DNA from: a virus
Lineage: Duplodnaviria > Caudoviricetes
Reading direction: 5' to 3' (one strand)
Length of the DNA: 25,833 nt
Virus record (IMG/VR): IMGVR_UViG_3300027756_000050
Location: 1-25,833 of that record
The notes beneath the pieces were generated by a model that saw only the letters and a program-made list of their open reading frames with translations, did not search any database and was not told the DNA's origin. Shown piece after piece: positions 744 to 10,047 of the stretch; within the stretch, counting starts at the first letter, position 1, and each line of letters begins with the position of its first letter. Position numbers and translations under genes: made by a program.

Positions 744-1016
744 TTATTTTAAATCTGTGTTTATAGAAAGTCTTTTACGTTTCCTTATATCGGTTCTCTC
801 CTTGGGGGTTAGTCCTCCCCAAAAACCAAATAATTCGTTTTTGATGGCCCACTCGGCGCACTCACCGATGTGAATACATTTTCTACATATGGAGCCTGCC
901 ATAGCGTATGTACTCATCGAGTCAACTCTCATATCATCTTTATCATCAGTGTAGAACATCTCTACACCTACTTCTGAACATAACGGTTCTTCAAATTCCC
1001 ATGGGCTACGAGACAC
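744..1016 (-). CDS. whiB: WhiB-family Fe-S transcription factor
   Basis: Four Cys (C...CRKC-x5-C), FGFWGGLTPKER signature, basic C-terminal tail; GTG start with AAGGAGAG RBS. Confidence 0.93.
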   Translation of the reverse strand: MSRSPWEFEEPLCSEVGVEMFYTDDKDDMRVDSMSTYAMAGSICRKCIHIGECAEWAIKNELFGFWGGLTPKERTDIRKRKRLSINTDLK

Positions 1017-1597: not shown

Positions 1598-2029
1598 TTA
1601 CAAGCGCTTTTCTAGTTGGTCTGGTCTCAAATGAACTCCGTCTAGAAGAGGAGTTTTATTATCATCGCTTTTGAGAATAATATCTCCATAGCGAATTCCT
1701 ACAACGCGACCCGTTCTTCCATTAAAGTCTTTACCACTCTTGTCATCAAAAGCATCAGACTTTATTCGCACATAATCTGCTAAAACAATAGATCCAGGAG
1801 TGACTTGAACCCAGGTGGCTCCCTTTTCTTCCTTTACAAGGGCGTGACCTAATGACAACTTAGCAAAGATAGCAATAATATCTTTAGAGTAGTCAACTTT
1901 GTGTTCCTTGTTCTTTTCTTTTATTTCCTCCCAAGACTTCAGAAGGGTCAGAACAGAGTCACCAACAATTCTTCTGGTCTTGTTTTTTGTCAGTTGCTCT
2001 TTTACCCAGGCAATATCTACATCAGCCAT
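1598..2029 (-). CDS. Hypothetical protein; helical N-terminus and SH3/KOW-like C-terminal beta domain
   Basis: GAAAGGAA RBS; DYVRIK...NGRTGRVVGIRYGDIILK...LRPDQLEK pattern resembles SH3-fold barrels. Confidence 0.7.
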   Translation of the reverse strand: MADVDIAWVKEQLTKNKTRRIVGDSVLTLLKSWEEIKEKNKEHKVDYSKDIIAIFAKLSLGHALVKEEKGATWVQVTPGSIVLADYVRIKSDAFDDKSGKDFNGRTGRVVGIRYGDIILKSDDNKTPLLDGVHLRPDQLEKRL

Positions 2030-2059
2030 TTTTTATTCCTTTCCTAGTTAGTTTGTTTA

Positions 2060-3070
2060 CTACTTTTGTAACAGTATGTTTCCTATATTTTCTTTTACAC
2101 TCTCCCACGAGGGTATATTTTGAATATAAGATTCCTTTTGCTTTTTAGACAGTTCAACTCTTTCTATAGGGCTCATCTCCTCTATAGCGTGCGGCAGTGT
2201 CGACCACTCTGGGCCCATACTTGTAGTCAATCTCCAGTCAGTAACTGCAGGAACCCCCACATACAGCGCCTGTGACAGGGTTGGGAACCACCAAGGGTTT
2301 CCAGATTTATAGACTGAAACTAGTGCGCCCATAGAACTATTTAATCTAGTTAATATGTCTTTGTTACCTTCCCATTTAGTTGCTCTGTAGTTGACCTGAG
2401 GGTTAGATAGAGACACAGATACTTTACGATACCAATCAGTTTTAGGGTTGTCGATACACCAATAACTTCCATCAGCATAGTTTTGAATCGGGTTATTAAT
2501 TTCTAAAAGGGCAGCGTCTGGTGAGATTAAAAATAATTTTGTTCTATCTACATTAGGTATGTACTTAGTGACTATTTCTTCCTTAGACCAAGGGTAGGAG
2601 GGGATAATTGTTTTAGGCCAAGCGTTTCCATAAAGTTTTTTAGCACCTTCTATGACGTTTTCATAGTTCTTAGGTTCTTGAGCCAACTTATACTCTCTTT
2701 TTTTAGAGTGAAAACTTCCAAAGAAGGAGTCAGGTTTTCTGTATATATCTCCCAAACTAAAATAAAGTTTGTGGGGGTCAATAGTATCCATAAACAGAGA
2801 TAGAGTTCCTAAATCACTAGCGTGATTAATTACAGACAAAGCCCCATATACCCTGTGGGATGCAATACCTGTTGGCTTAGAGACGCCCACCAAAATAGAG
2901 TCATACTGAGACAAATAATCTTTATTCATAGTTACTGAAGGGTCTTGCCAAGTAACATCAAAACCTAATTCAGTCAGAGCAATATTAATAATTCCAGCAA
3001 ATGAAGGGTTCTTTTCGTTTGTATTTTTGGACGCATGAGACGCGGTGCACCCTGTAATCAATACCTTCAT
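2060..3070 (-). CDS. Putative GT-B glycosyltransferase resembling T4 DNA beta-glucosyltransferase
   Basis: MKVLITG start strand, LTELGFDV, LSQYDSILVG, LFMD, SMGALV...LSQALYVGVPAVTD and a terminal helix, all colinear with T4 BGT as recalled; 336 aa; AGAGG RBS. Confidence 0.6.
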   Translation of the reverse strand: MKVLITGCTASHASKNTNEKNPSFAGIINIALTELGFDVTWQDPSVTMNKDYLSQYDSILVGVSKPTGIASHRVYGALSVINHASDLGTLSLFMDTIDPHKLYFSLGDIYRKPDSFFGSFHSKKREYKLAQEPKNYENVIEGAKKLYGNAWPKTIIPSYPWSKEEIVTKYIPNVDRTKLFLISPDAALLEINNPIQNYADGSYWCIDNPKTDWYRKVSVSLSNPQVNYRATKWEGNKDILTRLNSSMGALVSVYKSGNPWWFPTLSQALYVGVPAVTDWRLTTSMGPEWSTLPHAIEEMSPIERVELSKKQKESYIQNIPSWESVKENIGNILLQK

Positions 3071-3094: not shown

Positions 3095-3143
3095 TTACTA
3101 GATGTTGTTGTACATTCCCCTGAACAACAACAACACCTAGTAA
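3095..3143 (-). terminator. Long stem-loop downstream of the SSB gene (terminator without U-tract, or processing site)
   Basis: Minus strand TTACTAGGTGTTGTTGT ... ACAACAACATCTAGTAA forms a 17-bp stem with one G-U; no poly-T follows. Confidence 0.6.
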
Positions 3144-3156
3144 ACTCTATCTTTGT

Positions 3157-3669
3157 TTAGAAAGGAGCAGCGGGTGCTGCAGATGGTGCTGGTGCAGGAG
3201 CAGGTGCTGGTGCAGGAGCAGGTGCGGCAGCAGTTACTGGTGCTCCAGTAGCAGGTGCAGTGTTTGGGTAGTAGTTCTTAATTTCATTCTTCTTAGAACC
3301 ATTCCAAGTACGTGTTCCAACTTGAGCACGAAAACGCTTACCATTAATTACTTGCTCAATTTGAGCATTGGTTGGCGCTGGTTGTTGTAGGAAGTAATCA
3401 CGAGGAACACCAAGAGCATGCATCTTCTTGAAAAAGATACCAAGAGCAGCAGGACTATCTGGAGAAACAACTAAGTTATCCCAAACAAGACGCTTGTTGT
3501 GAGCGCCACCCTCAACCTGTGCTTTTACAGAGAACATTGTTTTGCCACTCTGTGTCATTTTGTGTGTGGCTTCTACAACTACAACATCGTAATCGCCATC
3601 TGGAAGCGGATCATAGTTTCCTGATTCGCCTGCTTCTTTGATGAGGTCACCCCAGTTTAGAGTACTCAT
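3157..3669 (-). CDS. DUF669-family single-stranded DNA-binding protein
   Basis: YDPLPDGDYDVVV...SGKTM...RLVWDNL...GKRFRAQV...NEIK pattern; low-complexity tail ending PF; adjacent to AAA_24 ATPase. Confidence 0.8.
   Translation of the reverse strand: MSTLNWGDLIKEAGESGNYDPLPDGDYDVVVVEATHKMTQSGKTMFSVKAQVEGGAHNKRLVWDNLVVSPDSPAALGIFFKKMHALGVPRDYFLQQPAPTNAQIEQVINGKRFRAQVGTRTWNGSKKNEIKNYYPNTAPATGAPVTAAAPAPAPAPAPAPAPSAAPAAPF
3185..3225. repeat. 18-bp coding tandem repeat (GGTGCTGGTGCAGGAGCA x2.3) encoding the Pro-Ala tail
   Basis: Exact copies at 3185-3202 and 3203-3220, partial copy 3221-3225. Confidence 0.9.
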
Positions 3670-3672
3670 GTG

Positions 3673-4452
3673 TTATACCTCTTTCTTTTCTTTAGTGGTT
3701 TTTTCTTCAGCAGTTTGCTTAACTCCAAAAATAGTATTAAGCATTACTTCAATTGATAACTTATCTTGCTCAACGATAGAACCTAGACGACCTTGTACTC
3801 GCTCGCCAGCCTCGTACTCGTTTGTTCTCTCCACATACATACGCCTTACTTTGTAAGGTGCTTGCAGCGGGTCTGGGTTTGGCATTTGCTCTACTGTCAA
3901 CGCACCAAGAATGTCGTAAAAATATGGTGCTTGAATTGCTAGTTGACCTTGCAGATATGGGCGGTGTCTTGCATCCTGACTTGTTCTTGACATAGCAGTC
4001 AATACAACTGCCTCAAGAGGATTTGTAGCGTGCATAGTTAAATCGCGAAGGTCACGAAGAAGACCGCCCATGTGGCGAAGTAGTTCTCCCCATTGTTGCA
4101 TCTTCATTTGCTCTGTGCCAGCGATACTATCCATACACTTCACTTGTAGTTCAGAGATTGAGTCAATAATCAAACTCTTGAAGTGATGCTTTCCAAGTTG
4201 TAACCACTGATAGACCTTAATAACAGTGTCGTAGTCACGAACAGTAACTACAACAGTGTCCCAAGTGCCATCAGCGATTGGTGGTTCCTCGCGAAGAGGA
4301 TCCCAATACTTAACAACGATAGGTAGGAATCGGTGCCCACCCTCAACGTCAAGCATGAGTCGTGGGTATGGAGCAGTTACAGCAAAGGTAGATTTACCTA
4401 CCTTACTTTCACCATACACCATAACCGTAAGAGAGCGTTGGATATCACTCAT
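3673..4452 (-). CDS. AAA_24 / Sak4-like RecA-fold ATPase (single-strand annealing recombinase)
   Basis: Walker A YGESKVGKST, LDVEGG, Walker B LIIDSISE, QQWG; lies between exonuclease and SSB. Confidence 0.85.
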   Translation of the reverse strand: MSDIQRSLTVMVYGESKVGKSTFAVTAPYPRLMLDVEGGHRFLPIVVKYWDPLREEPPIADGTWDTVVVTVRDYDTVIKVYQWLQLGKHHFKSLIIDSISELQVKCMDSIAGTEQMKMQQWGELLRHMGGLLRDLRDLTMHATNPLEAVVLTAMSRTSQDARHRPYLQGQLAIQAPYFYDILGALTVEQMPNPDPLQAPYKVRRMYVERTNEYEAGERVQGRLGSIVEQDKLSIEVMLNTIFGVKQTAEEKTTKEKKEV

Positions 4453-4455
4453 ACG

Positions 4456-5382
4456 TCACTCGCCTCCTTTAGTTTGTGTTTCGTAGTATGCATAAGGATC
4501 AGTCTCCTCATACATTTCACTAAGTGCTTGTTCAGCGGCGCTTCCGTCGTCAAACATTGGGCAGATAGCAAAAAATTGGCATTTCCATTTACAGTCACGA
4601 CTTGGTTTCGGGTAAGCATTGAATGCATGACTCTCACCAGAATCTAAAGCATGTCTTACTCTCATTAGGTCTGTGATTGTTCCGTGAATTCTATTCCAAA
4701 AAGAACGCATAGTAAAGATGTTATGACGAATTTCTATTTGGTCATAGAAGGGAGGCTTAGCGGCCGCGGTTCGGCGAACCTTTTTAAGAAGAGTAAATAT
4801 TCCACCTTCGCTTCTTTCTGCTTCATCTCTTTTAGTAGATTCTAAAAGCATGTATGTCATAACCTGCTCATTCATGTGAGCCATATTTGAAAACTCAGAT
4901 AGAGAGCCTCCTACAGTTTTAAAGTCTCTAAACATTCTTACGCCATCAGCCTTACGACGAACGCGCATATCAAGTTTTCCTTGAAGTTCTACTTCACCAT
5001 TAAACAAGGGTGCAATAATTGTTTCTTCGGTAGATATCATCTCTAGTTCGGCGTCAATTCCGTTTTCTTCTACCCACTGCTCATAACCTTCGAGCATGAT
5101 TCGACCTAACTCGCCTTCTGTTTCAAGGTTAGATACGTCTCTAAAATCTTGCAGTAAAAGTTGTTTGTCTTGCTCAATTAATTCAGCGTGTGCAGTAAGC
5201 AGAGGAACACCCTGAGCATAGTGAGCATCTAAAGCGGCGTGGATTCTACTTCCCATAGCAAGTGGGCCAGTCATGTCTTGATTTTTAGGCTTTAGTCTAC
5301 GATAGTAAGTCAGCCACCACCTACGCCGACAATCTTTAAACGTTTGTAGTTCTGAGTTAGATAGTCTTATAACTCCACTCAT
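4456..5382 (-). CDS. Cas4/RecB-like PD-(D/E)XK exonuclease with Fe-S cysteines
   Basis: LSNSELQTFKDC, GSRIH, GKLD, DFKT, QVMTY, C-terminal CKWKCQFFAIC; ATGA overlap with helicase stop. Confidence 0.88.
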   Translation of the reverse strand: MSGVIRLSNSELQTFKDCRRRWWLTYYRRLKPKNQDMTGPLAMGSRIHAALDAHYAQGVPLLTAHAELIEQDKQLLLQDFRDVSNLETEGELGRIMLEGYEQWVEENGIDAELEMISTEETIIAPLFNGEVELQGKLDMRVRRKADGVRMFRDFKTVGGSLSEFSNMAHMNEQVMTYMLLESTKRDEAERSEGGIFTLLKKVRRTAAAKPPFYDQIEIRHNIFTMRSFWNRIHGTITDLMRVRHALDSGESHAFNAYPKPSRDCKWKCQFFAICPMFDDGSAAEQALSEMYEETDPYAYYETQTKGGE

Positions 5383-7178
5383 AGGTTTCCTGTCTTATCA
5401 TCTTGTAGTAGTTTTAGAAGTTGGTCTTTGTCTTTAACAATTTGTTCAAAATTATCGGCTTTAGTTTCTAAAACTTGGATAACTCTTTCCTCTATAGTTC
5501 CTTCCGTAACATAGTCGGTAATTACTATAGAGTCATGTATTTCGCTTCCGATTCTATGTACGCGGTCTAGTACCTGCTTGTAATCAACTAAAGACCAAGG
5601 TCTTTGAAGCATTATCAGGCGACGAGCAGCGGTAAGTGTGATTCCAACCCCTCCCGCTTGTGCTGTGAACAGAATCCATTTTATGGCTCCAGATTGGAAA
5701 TCGTCAATAGCCTTTTGACGTTCATCTTCATCTTGGTCCCCTGTGATTAATCCATGTGGAATTTTTTTCTTTGTCAACTCTGCGCTGAGCAGATTAATAA
5801 GTTGTTTAGAGACGGCACTTACCGCTACAGAGTCATCTCCAAAGTCCCCGTTTTCAATGTCATCCATCAAAGCATCAATTTTGCAAGAAGGAGAATCTAA
5901 TACTGCCTTAGGCTCACCAGTTACTTCGTTAACAACAATCGTTGCATAAGAACTAGCAAACTGAAGAAGTCTTATCGTCTGAGTTAGAACGCTAGGTGCT
6001 GCAAGAGTGTCTCCAGACTCAAGTTCAGATATCATCAAATCTCTCATCTGTTGATAAGCTTTTTTCTGTTTAGTTGACATCTCTACATCTCTGCGCTCTT
6101 TTAGAACTGGAGGTAGATTAGGTAGTACAACTTTTTTAAGCATGCGTCTCATATATGGATTGATGCTGCTATAAAACTCATCTTGCATCTGAGGCTTAAC
6201 GCCTATGACCATCATTCCGCCAAAAGCGTTAAGCATTACATCAACCATTCGGTCAATCCATTTTGTCTTGCTAGGCCAGTCCTTAGGAGAAATCCAGTGA
6301 AGTATTGACCAAAGATCTACAACATTATTAGCAATAGGTGTTCCAGTTAGTGCAAAGCGAATCTCGGCGCTACCAGAGGCAGACCAAAGAGCACGAGACT
6401 GCTTTGATTTAGGGTCTTTACTTCTATGAATCTCGTCTGCAACTACTGCTTTAAATTTAAAACTGTTTAACTCTCTTAGATGGACTTCGCAACGGTTCTC
6501 GCTAATTTTTTCATCTTGACCCCCGCAAGCCTTGCACCTTGTTAAAGAGATAGAGCCGTAAGGGGAAAGTCTTGAGTGAGAGCGTAAGGACTCCCAATTG
6601 ATGATAAAGATTTCTGCTGGTTCTTCAAACTGCTTTTTGCGTTGAAGAGCAGAGCCTTTGATAACTTGTGTATCTACATCTGGCCACCATGTAGCAAACT
6701 CTCTTGCCCAGTTACTTTTTAGAGTATTAGGGCAGACAATTAAGATAGGGAAAACATCTTCTCCTCTATCGTGTAGTTCTTTTAGGGCTCTAATAGCCTG
6801 AGCAGTCTTACCTAAGCCAGGTTCATCGGCTAGGAGGGCTCTTTTAGCAGTTGCTAGAAAGGCAACCCCTGCTCTTTGATGAGGGAACAGCACCTCATCG
6901 CCTTCATAGGTCTCTAACTCTCTCAAAGCGTTAGCAGGAGCAATTCTTGTCTCTAATTGATTGGCAGCCCAAGCGCCTAAAGTAGGCTTTATCTCTAAAT
7001 CACTACGAAACGTTGAGCGTAGGGCTAAGCAGGTTGTCCAGCTTAAGGGGACTCTCCAAACCTGCTCAGAAGCGCTCCAGGAGGCCCCTGGAAGGCTTTT
7101 ACAGAGCTCTTTGTAGCGCCAGTCAGCACTTATGAGGATGTGCTCCCCTTGAGCGTCTATATCTACAGATACTGCCAC
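5379..7178 (-). CDS. SNF2-family (superfamily 2) helicase/translocase
   Basis: LFPHQ, LLADEPGLGKT, DEIH, LTGTP, GGVGITL, QVLDRVHRIG motifs; GTG start with AAGGAG RBS. Confidence 0.92.
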   Translation of the reverse strand: MAVSVDIDAQGEHILISADWRYKELCKSLPGASWSASEQVWRVPLSWTTCLALRSTFRSDLEIKPTLGAWAANQLETRIAPANALRELETYEGDEVLFPHQRAGVAFLATAKRALLADEPGLGKTAQAIRALKELHDRGEDVFPILIVCPNTLKSNWAREFATWWPDVDTQVIKGSALQRKKQFEEPAEIFIINWESLRSHSRLSPYGSISLTRCKACGGQDEKISENRCEVHLRELNSFKFKAVVADEIHRSKDPKSKQSRALWSASGSAEIRFALTGTPIANNVVDLWSILHWISPKDWPSKTKWIDRMVDVMLNAFGGMMVIGVKPQMQDEFYSSINPYMRRMLKKVVLPNLPPVLKERRDVEMSTKQKKAYQQMRDLMISELESGDTLAAPSVLTQTIRLLQFASSYATIVVNEVTGEPKAVLDSPSCKIDALMDDIENGDFGDDSVAVSAVSKQLINLLSAELTKKKIPHGLITGDQDEDERQKAIDDFQSGAIKWILFTAQAGGVGITLTAARRLIMLQRPWSLVDYKQVLDRVHRIGSEIHDSIVITDYVTEGTIEERVIQVLETKADNFEQIVKDKDQLLKLLQDDKTGNL

Positions 7179-7239: not shown

Positions 7240-7719
7240 CTATTTTAGCAGAACTACTGGCTTCCAACCGCTTTTAACCAACTTTAAAAGGGCGTGTCGT
7301 ATGGCATCGTTTGCGTGCCCTTCCCCGCCTTTATGCCAAGTACCTAGCTTTTTTAGAGCCTCGTTGGGGAACATAGTTTTAGCATCAACAGGGGATTGAA
7401 AAACAATTTTTTCAGGGTCATATTCCTTAGTTCGACACATATGCTTTAAAACCCCTATCTGTTCAAGGCTAAAGGGTGCCTGTGAGTTTCTTACTGTTTG
7501 AGCAGTAATAACAAATCGTTCACAGACCACCACAACATTATCGTAGGACTGGGTAGAAGAAAAAGCAATAGACATAGCAGTCTCTATCCAAGAAGCAAAT
7601 GTCTCTGGGTCAACCTCTGCTGACATTTTTACTACGGGAGTCTCTTCTGGCAAGCCAGACCACTCAACTAAACAAACCCCTGTTGCCTTGCCAGGATCTA
7701 CAGACACTATGTATTTCAT
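7240..7719 (-). CDS. RuvC-like Holliday junction resolvase
   Basis: IVSVDPGKATG, VVVCERF and HANDAIRH acidic catalytic motifs of the RNase H/RuvC fold. Confidence 0.8.
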   Translation of the reverse strand: MKYIVSVDPGKATGVCLVEWSGLPEETPVVKMSAEVDPETFASWIETAMSIAFSSTQSYDNVVVVCERFVITAQTVRNSQAPFSLEQIGVLKHMCRTKEYDPEKIVFQSPVDAKTMFPNEALKKLGTWHKGGEGHANDAIRHALLKLVKSGWKPVVLLK

Positions 7720-9540
7720 TTAATACTTTTCTCCCCAATTCTCTAGTGGACCATCTATTCCAGCAGTTAGCGGAACATCCCAGCCTTCAGTAGTTGTCAT
7801 ACACTCCTGAACTATTTTCTTAAACTCTTCTGCTTTCTCTCTAGGTGCCTGTAAAACAATTTCATCGTGGACAGGGACAATAAGGTATTCGGTTAAATCT
7901 GCTTGGTCAAGTTTTATTAAATTACTTTTAAATATCTCAGCGGCACCGCCCTGAATCAAGTAATTAATTAGAGTGTAGACACGTCCTTCGTCGCAAGGGA
8001 TTTTACGACCAGTCCAAGTGTAAACGTAACCTTGACCTTCATCCCTCTCCCTGCGAACACCAAGATTTTCAATATCTTTTTGAAACTTAATCATTCCTGG
8101 ATAACGCTTATCAAAAGCATCTGATACAGATTTCATCTGAGACTCTAGAACTCCAGCGGTGATGGCCTGCTTAGCCACTCCAGCGCCGTAGAGACGACCA
8201 TAAACCATTCCCTTAATTAAGTTACGTCTTTTATCTGAACGAACCATCTCTGGTTCTTGATAAACCTCTCGACCAATTTCAGTAAATGGGTCTGAGCCAG
8301 TGGCGTCAGCGCGATTAAAAAGATTAATTAAATTAGGGTCTCTAGATAAAGAAGCAAACATACGAAACTCGACCTGGTCTAAGTCAGAGGTAATAATTAC
8401 GTGGTCTTTATCTTTAGGTATAAAGGCTCTACGAACAGTGTCATCTCCCTTTGGCAGGGTCTGCAATGCTGGGTCAGTAATAGACATACGAGAGGTACGA
8501 GCACCTAATGTTTTTACAGAAGGGTGAACAATGCCATCAATTGATTTGTTTAAGAAGTTAAGGAAGTAGGTATTTGCCAGTTTATCTGCTTTACGCTGTT
8601 TTAAAATTGTTTCGGCAAGGTTTTTAACTTCATCATTGCCTTGAATAGTTAGTAAGTGAAGTTGGTCTTTACTTGCAGATTTTTGACCAGAAGGGGTGGT
8701 TTCAGTTATCTCTGCGCCAAGTTTTTCAAATAATCTTACTAGTTGAATATTGCTGGTAATACTAGTTCCAGCATAGGTTTTAGCAGCCCACTCTTTTACC
8801 GACTCCGTGTAGTTAATAAGTTCTTCGTATTTACGTTTCGAGTACTCTAAATCAACTCTTGCACCGTTTATCTCCATACGAGTAACTATTTTTCTAGCGG
8901 CCATCTCGATTTCATAGGCTTTGTGATAAGGCTGACCAGGACCACATTTTTCATAAAACTTTTCCCACAGGCGCATTGTTAAAATAGTATCGAGTGCGCC
9001 ATAAGACCAGTAAGGCTCAAAGTTTGTGGGAACAGTTCCCCAAGTCCAACCATTTTTTGCTAGGTCGGTATCTAACTTATCTTGAAGATGAGCAGCGTGA
9101 CCATCTACAAGTCTTGCTGATAGAGGTTTTAATCCACCAGGGCCAAGCGGGTCGATAAGGTGAGCCATAATCATCGTGTCATGTGCACGATGCCAAGGCA
9201 TTTCCCAGTTAGATTTAATTGCAAACCATCGTGCTTCAAATGCAATGTTGTGACACACAATAGGGCCATCAAATTTATTCATTGCTTCATAAAAGACACC
9301 AGACCACTCTAACCAAGGAATAGACCAGCCATGCATACCATCGCCAACTTGAACTAAACGAATGTCCCCATGCCAAGGAGATAAAGCGTGGTCTCTAGGA
9401 AAGCCTGGTTTTTCTCCAGTTTCGATGTCTACAGCAATTGCACTGTGCGGCCGCCTTTGAGATAACCAAGAGATAAATTCATTTGCCTTTTCTACAGAGT
9501 CAACAAGGCTTACTTGAATTCCATCTAGTCCGTTTGTCAT
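7720..9540 (-). CDS. polA: Phage DNA polymerase I (family A; 3'-5' exonuclease plus polymerase, no 5'-3' exonuclease)
   Basis: ExoI DIET, ExoII HNIAFE, ExoIII YGALD; motif A DLDQVEFR, motif B RNLIKGMVYGRLYG, motif C VHDE. Confidence 0.96.
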   Translation of the reverse strand: MTNGLDGIQVSLVDSVEKANEFISWLSQRRPHSAIAVDIETGEKPGFPRDHALSPWHGDIRLVQVGDGMHGWSIPWLEWSGVFYEAMNKFDGPIVCHNIAFEARWFAIKSNWEMPWHRAHDTMIMAHLIDPLGPGGLKPLSARLVDGHAAHLQDKLDTDLAKNGWTWGTVPTNFEPYWSYGALDTILTMRLWEKFYEKCGPGQPYHKAYEIEMAARKIVTRMEINGARVDLEYSKRKYEELINYTESVKEWAAKTYAGTSITSNIQLVRLFEKLGAEITETTPSGQKSASKDQLHLLTIQGNDEVKNLAETILKQRKADKLANTYFLNFLNKSIDGIVHPSVKTLGARTSRMSITDPALQTLPKGDDTVRRAFIPKDKDHVIITSDLDQVEFRMFASLSRDPNLINLFNRADATGSDPFTEIGREVYQEPEMVRSDKRRNLIKGMVYGRLYGAGVAKQAITAGVLESQMKSVSDAFDKRYPGMIKFQKDIENLGVRRERDEGQGYVYTWTGRKIPCDEGRVYTLINYLIQGGAAEIFKSNLIKLDQADLTEYLIVPVHDEIVLQAPREKAEEFKKIVQECMTTTEGWDVPLTAGIDGPLENWGEKY

Positions 9541-9576
9541 TTATCCTTCTGTCTTTTTCTCTAGTTTAATTCTTTT

Positions 9577-10047
9577 TTATAGAATTGTCTCTATCCTATA
9601 GATAGTGTCTATGTTTTCATCATTCTTAGAAGCAGCCTCTAAGAGTTCGCGAGCAACATAGGTAAGGTATCTTGCCCCACTTTCGTTATATTTGTAAAGC
9701 GCATCTAGTACAGGCTGAGGATTATCGCTTACCTGAGCCCAGTAGCGATACCTTTCTGGAAAAATAATAGGCAACGACCTATTAGGGGAGCACTCTTCAC
9801 AGGGAATAGCGTCTTTTTCAAGATTTTCGGTATACTCGTCAATTAAATTATATCGTTCTACTTTTTCACAGGTTGCCCCGTGATAAATTAAAGAGACGCC
9901 TATACGAGAAAGTACGTAAGAACCGTTCTCAGTCTTGTAAAGGGCAAACTCAATCCAGCGCACCGAACCCTTACGCCACGAAGAGGATTTACTCAGCAGT
10001 TTCCCATTAAACTGTAAAGTCCTAGAACTATCTTTTACTTCAAACAT
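9577..10047 (-). CDS. Hypothetical protein with putative metal-binding H-x3-C...C-x2-C motif
   Basis: RWIEFALYKTENGSYV strand pair; YHGATC...PCEECSP. Confidence 0.75.
   Translation of the reverse strand: MFEVKDSSRTLQFNGKLLSKSSSWRKGSVRWIEFALYKTENGSYVLSRIGVSLIYHGATCEKVERYNLIDEYTENLEKDAIPCEECSPNRSLPIIFPERYRYWAQVSDNPQPVLDALYKYNESGARYLTYVARELLEAASKNDENIDTIYRIETIL

Follow-up and report, generated by a model that had tools for sequence, protein, structure and literature searches.

A T4 beta-glucosyltransferase-like protein conserved in a phage clade that has probably lost the rest of a hydroxymethylcytosine-sugar cassette

The beta-glucosyltransferase of phage T4 (BGT; gene b-gt, NP_049658; PF09198; PDB 1j39, 1nzd and 1qkj), which we take to be CAZy family GT63, is the nearest solved structure to the protein described here. 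Its residue D100 is catalytic (10.1101/2023.12.21.572611), and R191, R195 and R269 neutralise the diphosphate of UDP (10.1101/434092). Among the glycosyltransferase (GT) contigs mined by Pyle and co-workers, ~65% have no modification neighbour and were left unexplained (10.1101/2023.12.21.572611). Here we analyse GT2, a BGT-like protein encoded at positions 2060-3070, minus strand, of a 25,833-nucleotide stretch of a Caudoviricetes virus (IMG/VR record IMGVR_UViG_3300027756_000050; the whole stretch is hereafter the window). GT2 is likely all that remains of an ancestral hydroxymethylcytosine-sugar cassette; global glycosylation of cytosine is very probably absent from the window phage. We call a locus or record orphan if it carries GT2 only, and cassette if it carries the dCMP hydroxymethylase set.

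The open reading frame (ORF) of GT2 starts with ATG, has AGAGG five bases upstream of the start and encodes 336 residues. A preliminary description had pointed to short peptide blocks colinear with T4 BGT, and all of them are present in the GT2 translation and in T4 BGT from NC_000866. Direct comparisons of the two proteins are not significant: single-sequence hhalign gives probabilities of 1.4% and 3.9%, BLASTP finds one short segment that is out of register, and the family HMM of GT2 scores T4 BGT at E 0.09. The single-sequence comparison with the T4 alpha-glucosyltransferase (AGT) is not significant either. A word search found 103 relatives of GT2, and a profile search 571 representatives (E 0.001). 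When profiles of 133 GT2 family members and 42 BGT-family proteins are compared, a local match appears (E 3.3e-5, probability 72%) over the C-terminal 103 columns, pairing GT2 residues 231-333 with BGT 235-349. In the global profile alignment the two families are colinear from end to end (E 2.7e-5, probability 49%); this alignment pairs D95 of GT2 with D100, as had been proposed, in columns of low confidence.

Structure prediction strengthens the likeness. The AlphaFold model of GT2, built on a 100-sequence alignment, has a pLDDT of 93.0 and a pTM of 0.90. Its top Foldseek match is T4 BGT (1j39, E 4.3e-6, TM 0.58); BGT entries score TM 0.55-0.59, the other GT-B matches listed 0.31-0.55. In a re-alignment of 997 chains, which re-ranks Foldseek's own matches and is no separate search, BGT 1nzd again comes first (Z 18.5, rmsd 3.5, 296 residues aligned), followed by SenB (Z 16.7), T4 AGT (Z 16.5) and, lower, MshA (Z 15.9). 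The language-model look-alike of GT2 in the ESM Atlas belongs to a PF09198 cluster (score 0.95); Pfam PF09198 itself matches none of the 133 GT2 family members at E 0.05. Scans of GT2 against Pfam (one sub-threshold hit), PHROGs, NCBIfam and PDB sequences gave no usable match. GT2 is intact and conserved, its predicted fold is that of T4 BGT, and the structural check proposed in the preliminary description returned a GT-B fold.

The donor site tells a different story from the fold. Five residues are invariant in the 42 BGT-family proteins: D100, G188, R191, R269 and E272. D95 is retained in 57/57 orphan GT2 and in all 108 sequences that comprise orphan GT2, cassette GT2 and the paralog GT1. 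The profile alignment places T264 at R269 and Q267 at E272, in agreement with the T/Q reported earlier, and the GGSFRSGQR loop, described before as not evident, is absent from GT2. Arginine at the R269 column is found in 0/57 orphan GT2, 23/31 cassette GT2 and 20/20 GT1, where it sits in an almost invariant YPHAGSGWWRxR block. The loop glycine at the end of the first strand of the C-domain is similarly distributed (0/57, 1/31 and 20/20), and 53/57 orphans carry Asp or Glu in its place, which in the window is D207. The E272 column is Gln in 54/57 orphans and Glu in none. Net charge fails to separate GT2, GT1 and the BGT family. Because the donor-site tests of the BGT family failed in these alignments despite the BGT shape, we do not file GT2 as a BGT.

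Loss of donor residues has not been followed by decay of the gene. GT2 is under strong purifying selection, with a dN/dS against the relative G001 of 0.059 (PolA 0.044 and SSB 0.055 in the same comparison) and a median of 0.063 across 162 orphan pairs. The frame is full-length in 57 unique orphans, with pairwise identity down to 33%. The earlier suggestion of a degenerate enzyme is therefore half right: the donor-site residues are lost, but the gene is strongly selected. That GT2 is a decaying pseudogene left by cassette loss is highly improbable and largely refuted by dN/dS, even though its pathway partners and donor residues are gone and both one nested clade and the locus L240 have lost it. 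Over long ranges GT2 diverges faster than the replication genes, with a mean distance of 0.75 compared with 0.20 for PolA.

These features could also describe a GT-B enzyme that is active, has rebuilt its donor site and acts on something other than DNA, for example a small molecule or a protein of the phage or its host; the place of the gene in the operon would then be a relic of duplication there. Such an enzyme would fit the invariant D95, the clade-specific conserved polar residues and the combination of low dN/dS (0.06) with fast long-range divergence. It would also fit the next fold neighbours SenB and MshA, which are small-molecule transferases, and the strongly acidic GT2 of Gordonia phages (net -8 to -19), unlike a DNA binder. 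We nevertheless consider it rather unlikely: the phosphate-binding Arg and the loop Gly are lost, no donor-synthesis gene travels with orphan GT2, and two GT-A genes and an epimerase are already encoded next to the fibre genes of G001.

The origin of GT2 can be traced in annotated phages. Its matches comprise 14 records, namely DSL-LC01 (OQ999401; 32% to WJZ48542), whose genome is metagenome-assembled (PMC10611076), and 13 records of eight Gordonia phages (22-27%); these proteins are orthologous to GT2 of the window. DSL-LC01 has the same replication gene order and flanking genes as the window. It differs in an additional kinase, thymidylate-synthase homolog and dCMP deaminase before PolA and, after SSB, in GT1, a UDP-galactopyranose mutase, the GT2 ortholog, MazG/dUTPase, a C5-methyltransferase-like gene and a pyrimidine-dimer glycosylase. 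The Gordonia phages Forza, Phendrix and GMA2 likewise have the kinase, the synthase, both GT paralogs, MazG/dUTPase and the methyltransferase-like gene. The synthase homologs carry L143D and N177D and keep D169 (4/4 examined; 44/44 motif-matching ORFs), a signature of dCMP hydroxymethylase and not of 5-hydroxy-dCMP synthase (PMC13326640). From this signature, GT2 belongs to a predicted 5-hydroxymethylcytosine (5hmC)-sugar cassette. Descent of the window gene from this predicted 5hmC-glycosylation cassette is supported; the system itself was not recognised in the window's clade.

Across the cassette clade GT2 is constant, while the slot that precedes it is filled by one of three alternatives: two types of BGT-like GT1, or a 415-aa protein unrelated to them. 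The first type of GT1 has 345 aa and in some loci is accompanied by UDP-galactopyranose mutase, the second has 400 aa, and the 415-aa protein occurs both with and without an APH-type kinase, a HAD protein and a nucleotidyltransferase (examples at L119:11508-14762, L107:11451-12656, L134:11404-13537 and L133:11457-12707). This exchange beside a constant GT2 suggests that sugar specificity resides in the variable protein, and that several different sugars are placed on 5hmC within one phage group. PMC10611076 interprets the UDP-galactopyranose mutase as a cell-wall auxiliary gene. By eye only, the 415-aa protein resembles an alpha-glucosyltransferase, and the C-terminal extension of the cassette kinase (L001:8960-9955) a uracil-DNA-glycosylase fold; neither has a Pfam match. 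The C5-methyltransferase-like gene (L001:22953-24197; PF00145, E 1e-23, altered motifs) accompanies the hydroxymethylase cassette and is missing where the cassette has been lost.

The distribution of the cassette was examined in 80 loci found through the GT alignment and 163 anchored on Sak4 or the synthase, a sample biased toward the queries. Sak4 served as locus marker because two alignments were too divergent for searching; a locus search with GT2 of DSL-LC01 gave no pattern match. Within the available DNA, none of the 80 GT-alignment loci has the kinase, synthase, deaminase, GT1, mutase, MazG or methyltransferase-like gene. Loci cut short were dropped: 183 are complete downstream, and the 104 of these that are also complete upstream were counted. 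The synthase is present in 36/36 cassette loci and absent in 63/63 GT2-only loci, the window included, and in 5/5 GT-less loci. Made non-redundant by PolA, the set comprises 26 cassette loci (26/26 with synthase), 44 GT2-only loci (0/44) and 3 GT-less loci.

A tree of 92 unique loci, built from the helicase, exonuclease and Sak4 and rooted with cassette-bearing GMA2, resolves cassette and orphan loci as sister clades with SH-aLRT values of 98.8 and 99, and nests four GT-less loci among the orphans. Since the gene order is shared with the Gordonia phages, loss of the cassette in the orphan clade is the simpler reading. The PolA tree is partly discordant with this one, so recombination has occurred. 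In the GT-less clade (L213, L214, L215 and L221) the PolA branches outside the group and SSB sits on a long branch, likely a polymerase replacement.

Two relatives allow the search to reach beyond the window, in whose ORFs no hydroxymethylase or TET gene was recognised, as had been noted before. G001 (133 kb, CheckV 100% complete) has a GT2 89% identical to that of the window and 88% nucleotide identity to it over 10 kb; G005 has 127 kb and is 95% complete. With the cassette enzymes as queries, tblastn found nothing in either genome except 49 residues matching an ordinary Dcm-type methyltransferase, and the cassette kinase has no match in G001 or G005. Thymidylate synthase (PF00303) was found in 0/5 orphan records and in 4/5 records of a second set, those four being cassette phages. 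TET/JBP (PF12851) was found in 0/5 orphan records with silent controls, and in 0/4 when the phage Nigel control matched (E 4e-8), a search that could miss a very divergent dioxygenase. The dCTPase-type dUTPase_2 (PF08761) was found in 0/4 orphan records compared with 1/1 cassette record. Pfam scans of 148/151 G001 ORFs and 147/155 G005 ORFs gave no synthase, ThyX or dioxygenase; the ORFs omitted were fragments cut at stretch borders and, in G005, also core genes already identified. PHROGs and NCBIfam scans of 79 and 65 selected G001/G005 ORFs added no hydroxylating enzyme. The preliminary description had named a base-hydroxylating gene elsewhere in the genome as something to look for and its absence as grounds against a modification system; as far as the relatives' genomes can tell, no such gene is there.

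Palindrome usage provides independent information on the state of the DNA, as phages exposed to type II restriction lose such palindromic sites. We compared Markov-corrected observed and expected counts of 4-base palindromes. In the window, C-containing palindromes average 0.60 of expected (CCGG 0.10, GATC 0.29, AGCT 0.32), compared with 0.95 for A/T-only palindromes and 1.03 for non-palindromic 4-mers. The C-containing ratio is 0.61 in G001 and 0.44 in G005, where GATC and AGCT stand at 0.00 of expected over 127 kb, an extreme depletion. Orphan loci (n = 35) have a median C-palindrome ratio of 0.64 and cassette loci (n = 29) one of 0.94 (p 2e-11, for loci that are related and not independent), and at matched GC six orphan loci lie at 0.61-0.71 and 25 cassette loci at 0.83-1.02. 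DSL-LC01 (41 kb, L001) has the reverse pattern, with 0.92 for C-containing and 0.33 for A/T-only palindromes, and in pooled cassette loci ATTAAT (0.34) and TTTAAA (0.43) are depleted while C-containing palindromes are near 1. The tested stretches of DSL-LC01 and Forza show no avoidance of C-palindromes. These ratios are a sign that the DNA of the window's clade is not protected at cytosine, and lend indirect support to modified cytosine in DSL-LC01 and the cassette phages. Pumpernickel, which has no cassette at the locus, has a ratio of 0.91, so missing avoidance is no proof of modification.

It is very unlikely that the window phage carries T4-style glycosylated 5hmC, with its hydroxymethylase or TET gene elsewhere in the genome. 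The BGT fold, D95 and the origin of GT2 in a 5hmC cassette would agree with such a pathway, only 25.8 kb of the genome are known, and G001 has a split Dcm-type C5-methyltransferase. However, relatives with GT2 89-95% identical have no synthase, TET or dCTPase, G005 has no C5-methyltransferase by ORF scan, and the window itself depletes CCGG, GATC and AGCT. The DNA hypermodification system proposed earlier for this phage, taken as one that acts on cytosine, is thus not supported; both the near-complete genomes of G001 and G005 and the avoidance of C-palindromes speak against it.

The gene order of the window places GT2 in a replication operon, confirming the location given before; on the same strand it is preceded by the PolA, RuvC-like, SNF2 helicase, exonuclease, Sak4 and SSB genes. 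The features are as follows.

744..1016, minus strand: WhiB-family regulator (Pfam, PHROGs), pointing to an actinobacterial host (on WhiB, PMC10611076)
1059..1391, minus strand: DUF6378 protein (Pfam)
1598..2029, minus strand: conserved hypothetical protein of 143 aa, present in all three gene-order states including GT-less relatives
2030..2059, no strand: empty slot, occupied in cassette phages by MazG/dUTPase_2, likely a dCTPase (gene-order comparison)
2060..3070, minus strand: GT2, 336-aa GT-B protein nearest T4 beta-glucosyltransferase (model, Foldseek, profile alignment)
3096..3142, minus strand: long hairpin between the SSB stop and the GT2 start (z -5.4 in the window)
3157..3669, minus strand: SSB, DUF669, with C-terminal Pro-Phe (Pfam, PHROGs)
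3673..4452, minus strand: Sak4-like ssDNA annealing ATPase, used as family marker (Pfam, PHROGs)
4456..5382, minus strand: PD-(D/E)XK exonuclease (Pfam, PHROGs)
5379..7178, minus strand: SNF2-type helicase (Pfam, PHROGs)
7240..7719, minus strand: RuvC-like resolvase (homology to the DSL-LC01 gene so annotated, 48%)
7720..9540, minus strand: family A DNA polymerase with 3'-5' exonuclease, PolA (Pfam, PHROGs)
9541..9576, no strand: empty slot, occupied in cassette phages by the kinase, dCMP hydroxymethylase and dCMP deaminase (gene-order comparison)
9577-10047: 156-aa gene on the other side of the empty slot from PolA

The host of the window phage is likely actinobacterial. After the DUF6378 gene, cassette phages have the C5-methyltransferase-like and pyrimidine-dimer glycosylase genes, both of which are absent from the window. 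In G005 the slot before PolA is filled by a phrog_1574 gene of unknown function (L092:18675-19505), with copies at L090:13984-14646 and L096:12650-13300 (G001 and G005).

The hairpin was considered as a part of the GT system and rejected. It has z < -2 in 109/109 unique loci, in all of which SSB ends in Pro-Phe. The presence of the hairpin after SSB in every gene-order state means that it is not GT-specific; in cassette phages, the variable GT1 and sugar genes occupy the SSB-GT2 interval that holds it. At 3096-3142 it is probably a terminator or processing site. Metatranscriptome contigs from 4/4 runs span parts of GT2 but were not counted, as contigs cannot show transcription.

These data can be assembled into a mechanism. 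The ancestor would have carried the kinase, dCMP hydroxymethylase and deaminase before PolA, and GT1, GT2, a dCTPase and the C5-methyltransferase-like gene after SSB. The window's clade would have lost all of these cassette genes but GT2 and would have DNA with ordinary cytosine. In the cassette phages, the variable GT1 may be the sugar-specific catalyst and the constant GT2 a helper that ties modification to newly made DNA; orphan GT2, its donor site eroded, may keep contact with replication or recombination proteins without transferring sugar. We tentatively propose that GT2 is a retained pseudo-glycosyltransferase, a non-catalytic accessory of the replication module. A link to replication is thinly supported, by the operon position and by one GT-less clade in which PolA (55%) and SSB (42%) are divergent from those of the window at a Sak4 identity of 89%.

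Several observations weigh against this proposal. The residue equivalences come from sequence profiles without superposition, and the register of the loop Gly carries an uncertainty of +/-1-2 residues. D95, kept in 57/57 orphans, is compatible with catalysis as much as with a structural function, and the motifs conserved specifically in orphans (S252-x-Y254-K255, R229 and C205) could form another donor site. The change of PolA and SSB together with GT2 loss is a single event. Once the other genes are controlled for, GT2 and PolA distances are no longer correlated (partial r -0.06 over 44 loci; 0.46 for SNF2 and 0.28 for SSB in the same test). In L240 GT2 was lost beside an ordinary SSB, and the same replication module occurs without GT2 in Microbacterium phages; GT2 is therefore not essential. 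As for the chemistry, the record behind the window is one 25,833-base contig of a partial genome, about half of the G001/G005 ORFs are without annotation, which makes an unknown hydroxylase conceivable, and palindrome avoidance may also reflect host range across loci that are not independent.

An active DNA glycosyltransferase could act sparsely on an unrecognised acceptor: the base made by an unannotated hydroxylase, a Mom-like product, or the 5hmC of a co-infecting cassette phage. The nearest solved structure is indeed a DNA transferase, and a Mom-family gene (PF25680) is found in 4/7 orphan records and 0/5 others, the three orphan records without it being 67-78% complete. We judge this possibility to be unlikely. 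In G001 Mom lies ~56 kb from GT2; Mu Mom uses Gly-tRNA and transfers glycine (PMC13219725), and in our reading its product has no hydroxyl. The complete depletion of GATC and AGCT in G005 suggests little protection at A or C, and the donor-site residues are lost.

A direct link between Mom and GT2 was considered and found weak: the gene is distant, the chemistry relies on Gly-tRNA, and GT2 is in 0/4 further Mom-bearing records (two partial, two unrelated; a search without positive control). As an observation in its own right, the Mom-family adenine-modifying gene (L090:6943-7572, L097:2615-3250) may have replaced the cytosine cassette as protection. The Dcm-type C5-methyltransferase of G001 (L089:18427-19944) lies in two overlapping frames, with an additional 93-aa C-terminal-like piece upstream. 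The head region of G005 (L094:4457-12361) encodes a 2635-aa protein that combines an exonuclease domain, an ArdC-like N-terminal domain and a zincin metallopeptidase domain and may be injected to counter restriction.

More broadly, this freshwater actinophage clade, which is large and abundant, may have put a T4-BGT-type protein to a new use. The protein could serve the replisome of the family A polymerase as a pseudoenzyme subunit or, with its donor site rebuilt, act as a transferase on a base or molecule not known as a BGT substrate, for instance the adenine adduct of a Mom-type enzyme or hydroxymethylcytosine in the DNA of sister phages with which the clade competes; such specific roles remain doubtful. 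A search of openly accessible literature found no paper on the GT2 family, nor any on DNA modification in these Gordonia phages. Orphan GTs are known as such, and a clade-wide, selected orphan state is not described in the searchable literature. The phage group offers a natural experiment with three states, namely full cassette, GT2 only and none. Selection on a DNA-modifying fold after loss of its pathway would imply a second function of BGT-like proteins, likewise undescribed in that literature. The window phage probably contains no new modified base, and the case illustrates that modified DNA cannot be assumed from a BGT-like fold encoded next to replication genes alone: gene context, donor residues and palindromes oppose it here. 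Since cultured Gordonia phages carry a GT2 ortholog, both the cassette chemistry and the role of GT2 are testable at the bench.

Compared with known systems, GT2 shares with T4 BGT a full-length GT-B fold, a similar size, an Asp at the D100 position and a gene placed among replication genes. It differs in an identity of ~10% and in the lack, across its clade, of a gene-42 partner and a dCTPase. The glycosylated 5-hydroxycytosine pathways of RB69, DLP3 and Rhizobium phage RL38J1 employ several DNA glycosyltransferases with donor-making genes (UDP-galactopyranose mutase; a phosphotransferase with a nucleotidyltransferase), like the slot of the sister cassette clade. They need a D169N synthase (PMC13326640), whereas in the sister clade D169 is unchanged and in the window's clade no synthase was found. 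The TET/5mYOX-linked phage GT53, GT66 and GT94 also have BGT-like models (Foldseek E 1e-5 to 1e-7), and one such GT uses a HAD/APH kinase and a cytidylyltransferase, like the 415-aa block of the sister clade. They are located beside a C5-methyltransferase and a dioxygenase (10.1101/2023.12.21.572611), neither of which is near GT2 in the window. Because a hydroxylating gene is missing as far as tested, the window phage falls, to the same extent, outside the T4, RB69/RL38J1 and TET-linked pathways.

A different parallel comes from proteins that use the GT-B fold without catalysis. Streptococcal GtfB is a non-catalytic GT-B partner that needs a catalytic partner. As an analogy only, it illustrates how a GT-B fold can be kept as a helper after loss of donor-binding residues; the difference is that GtfB requires its catalytic partner, while in the window's clade the paralog GT1 is absent and GT2 has been retained alone.

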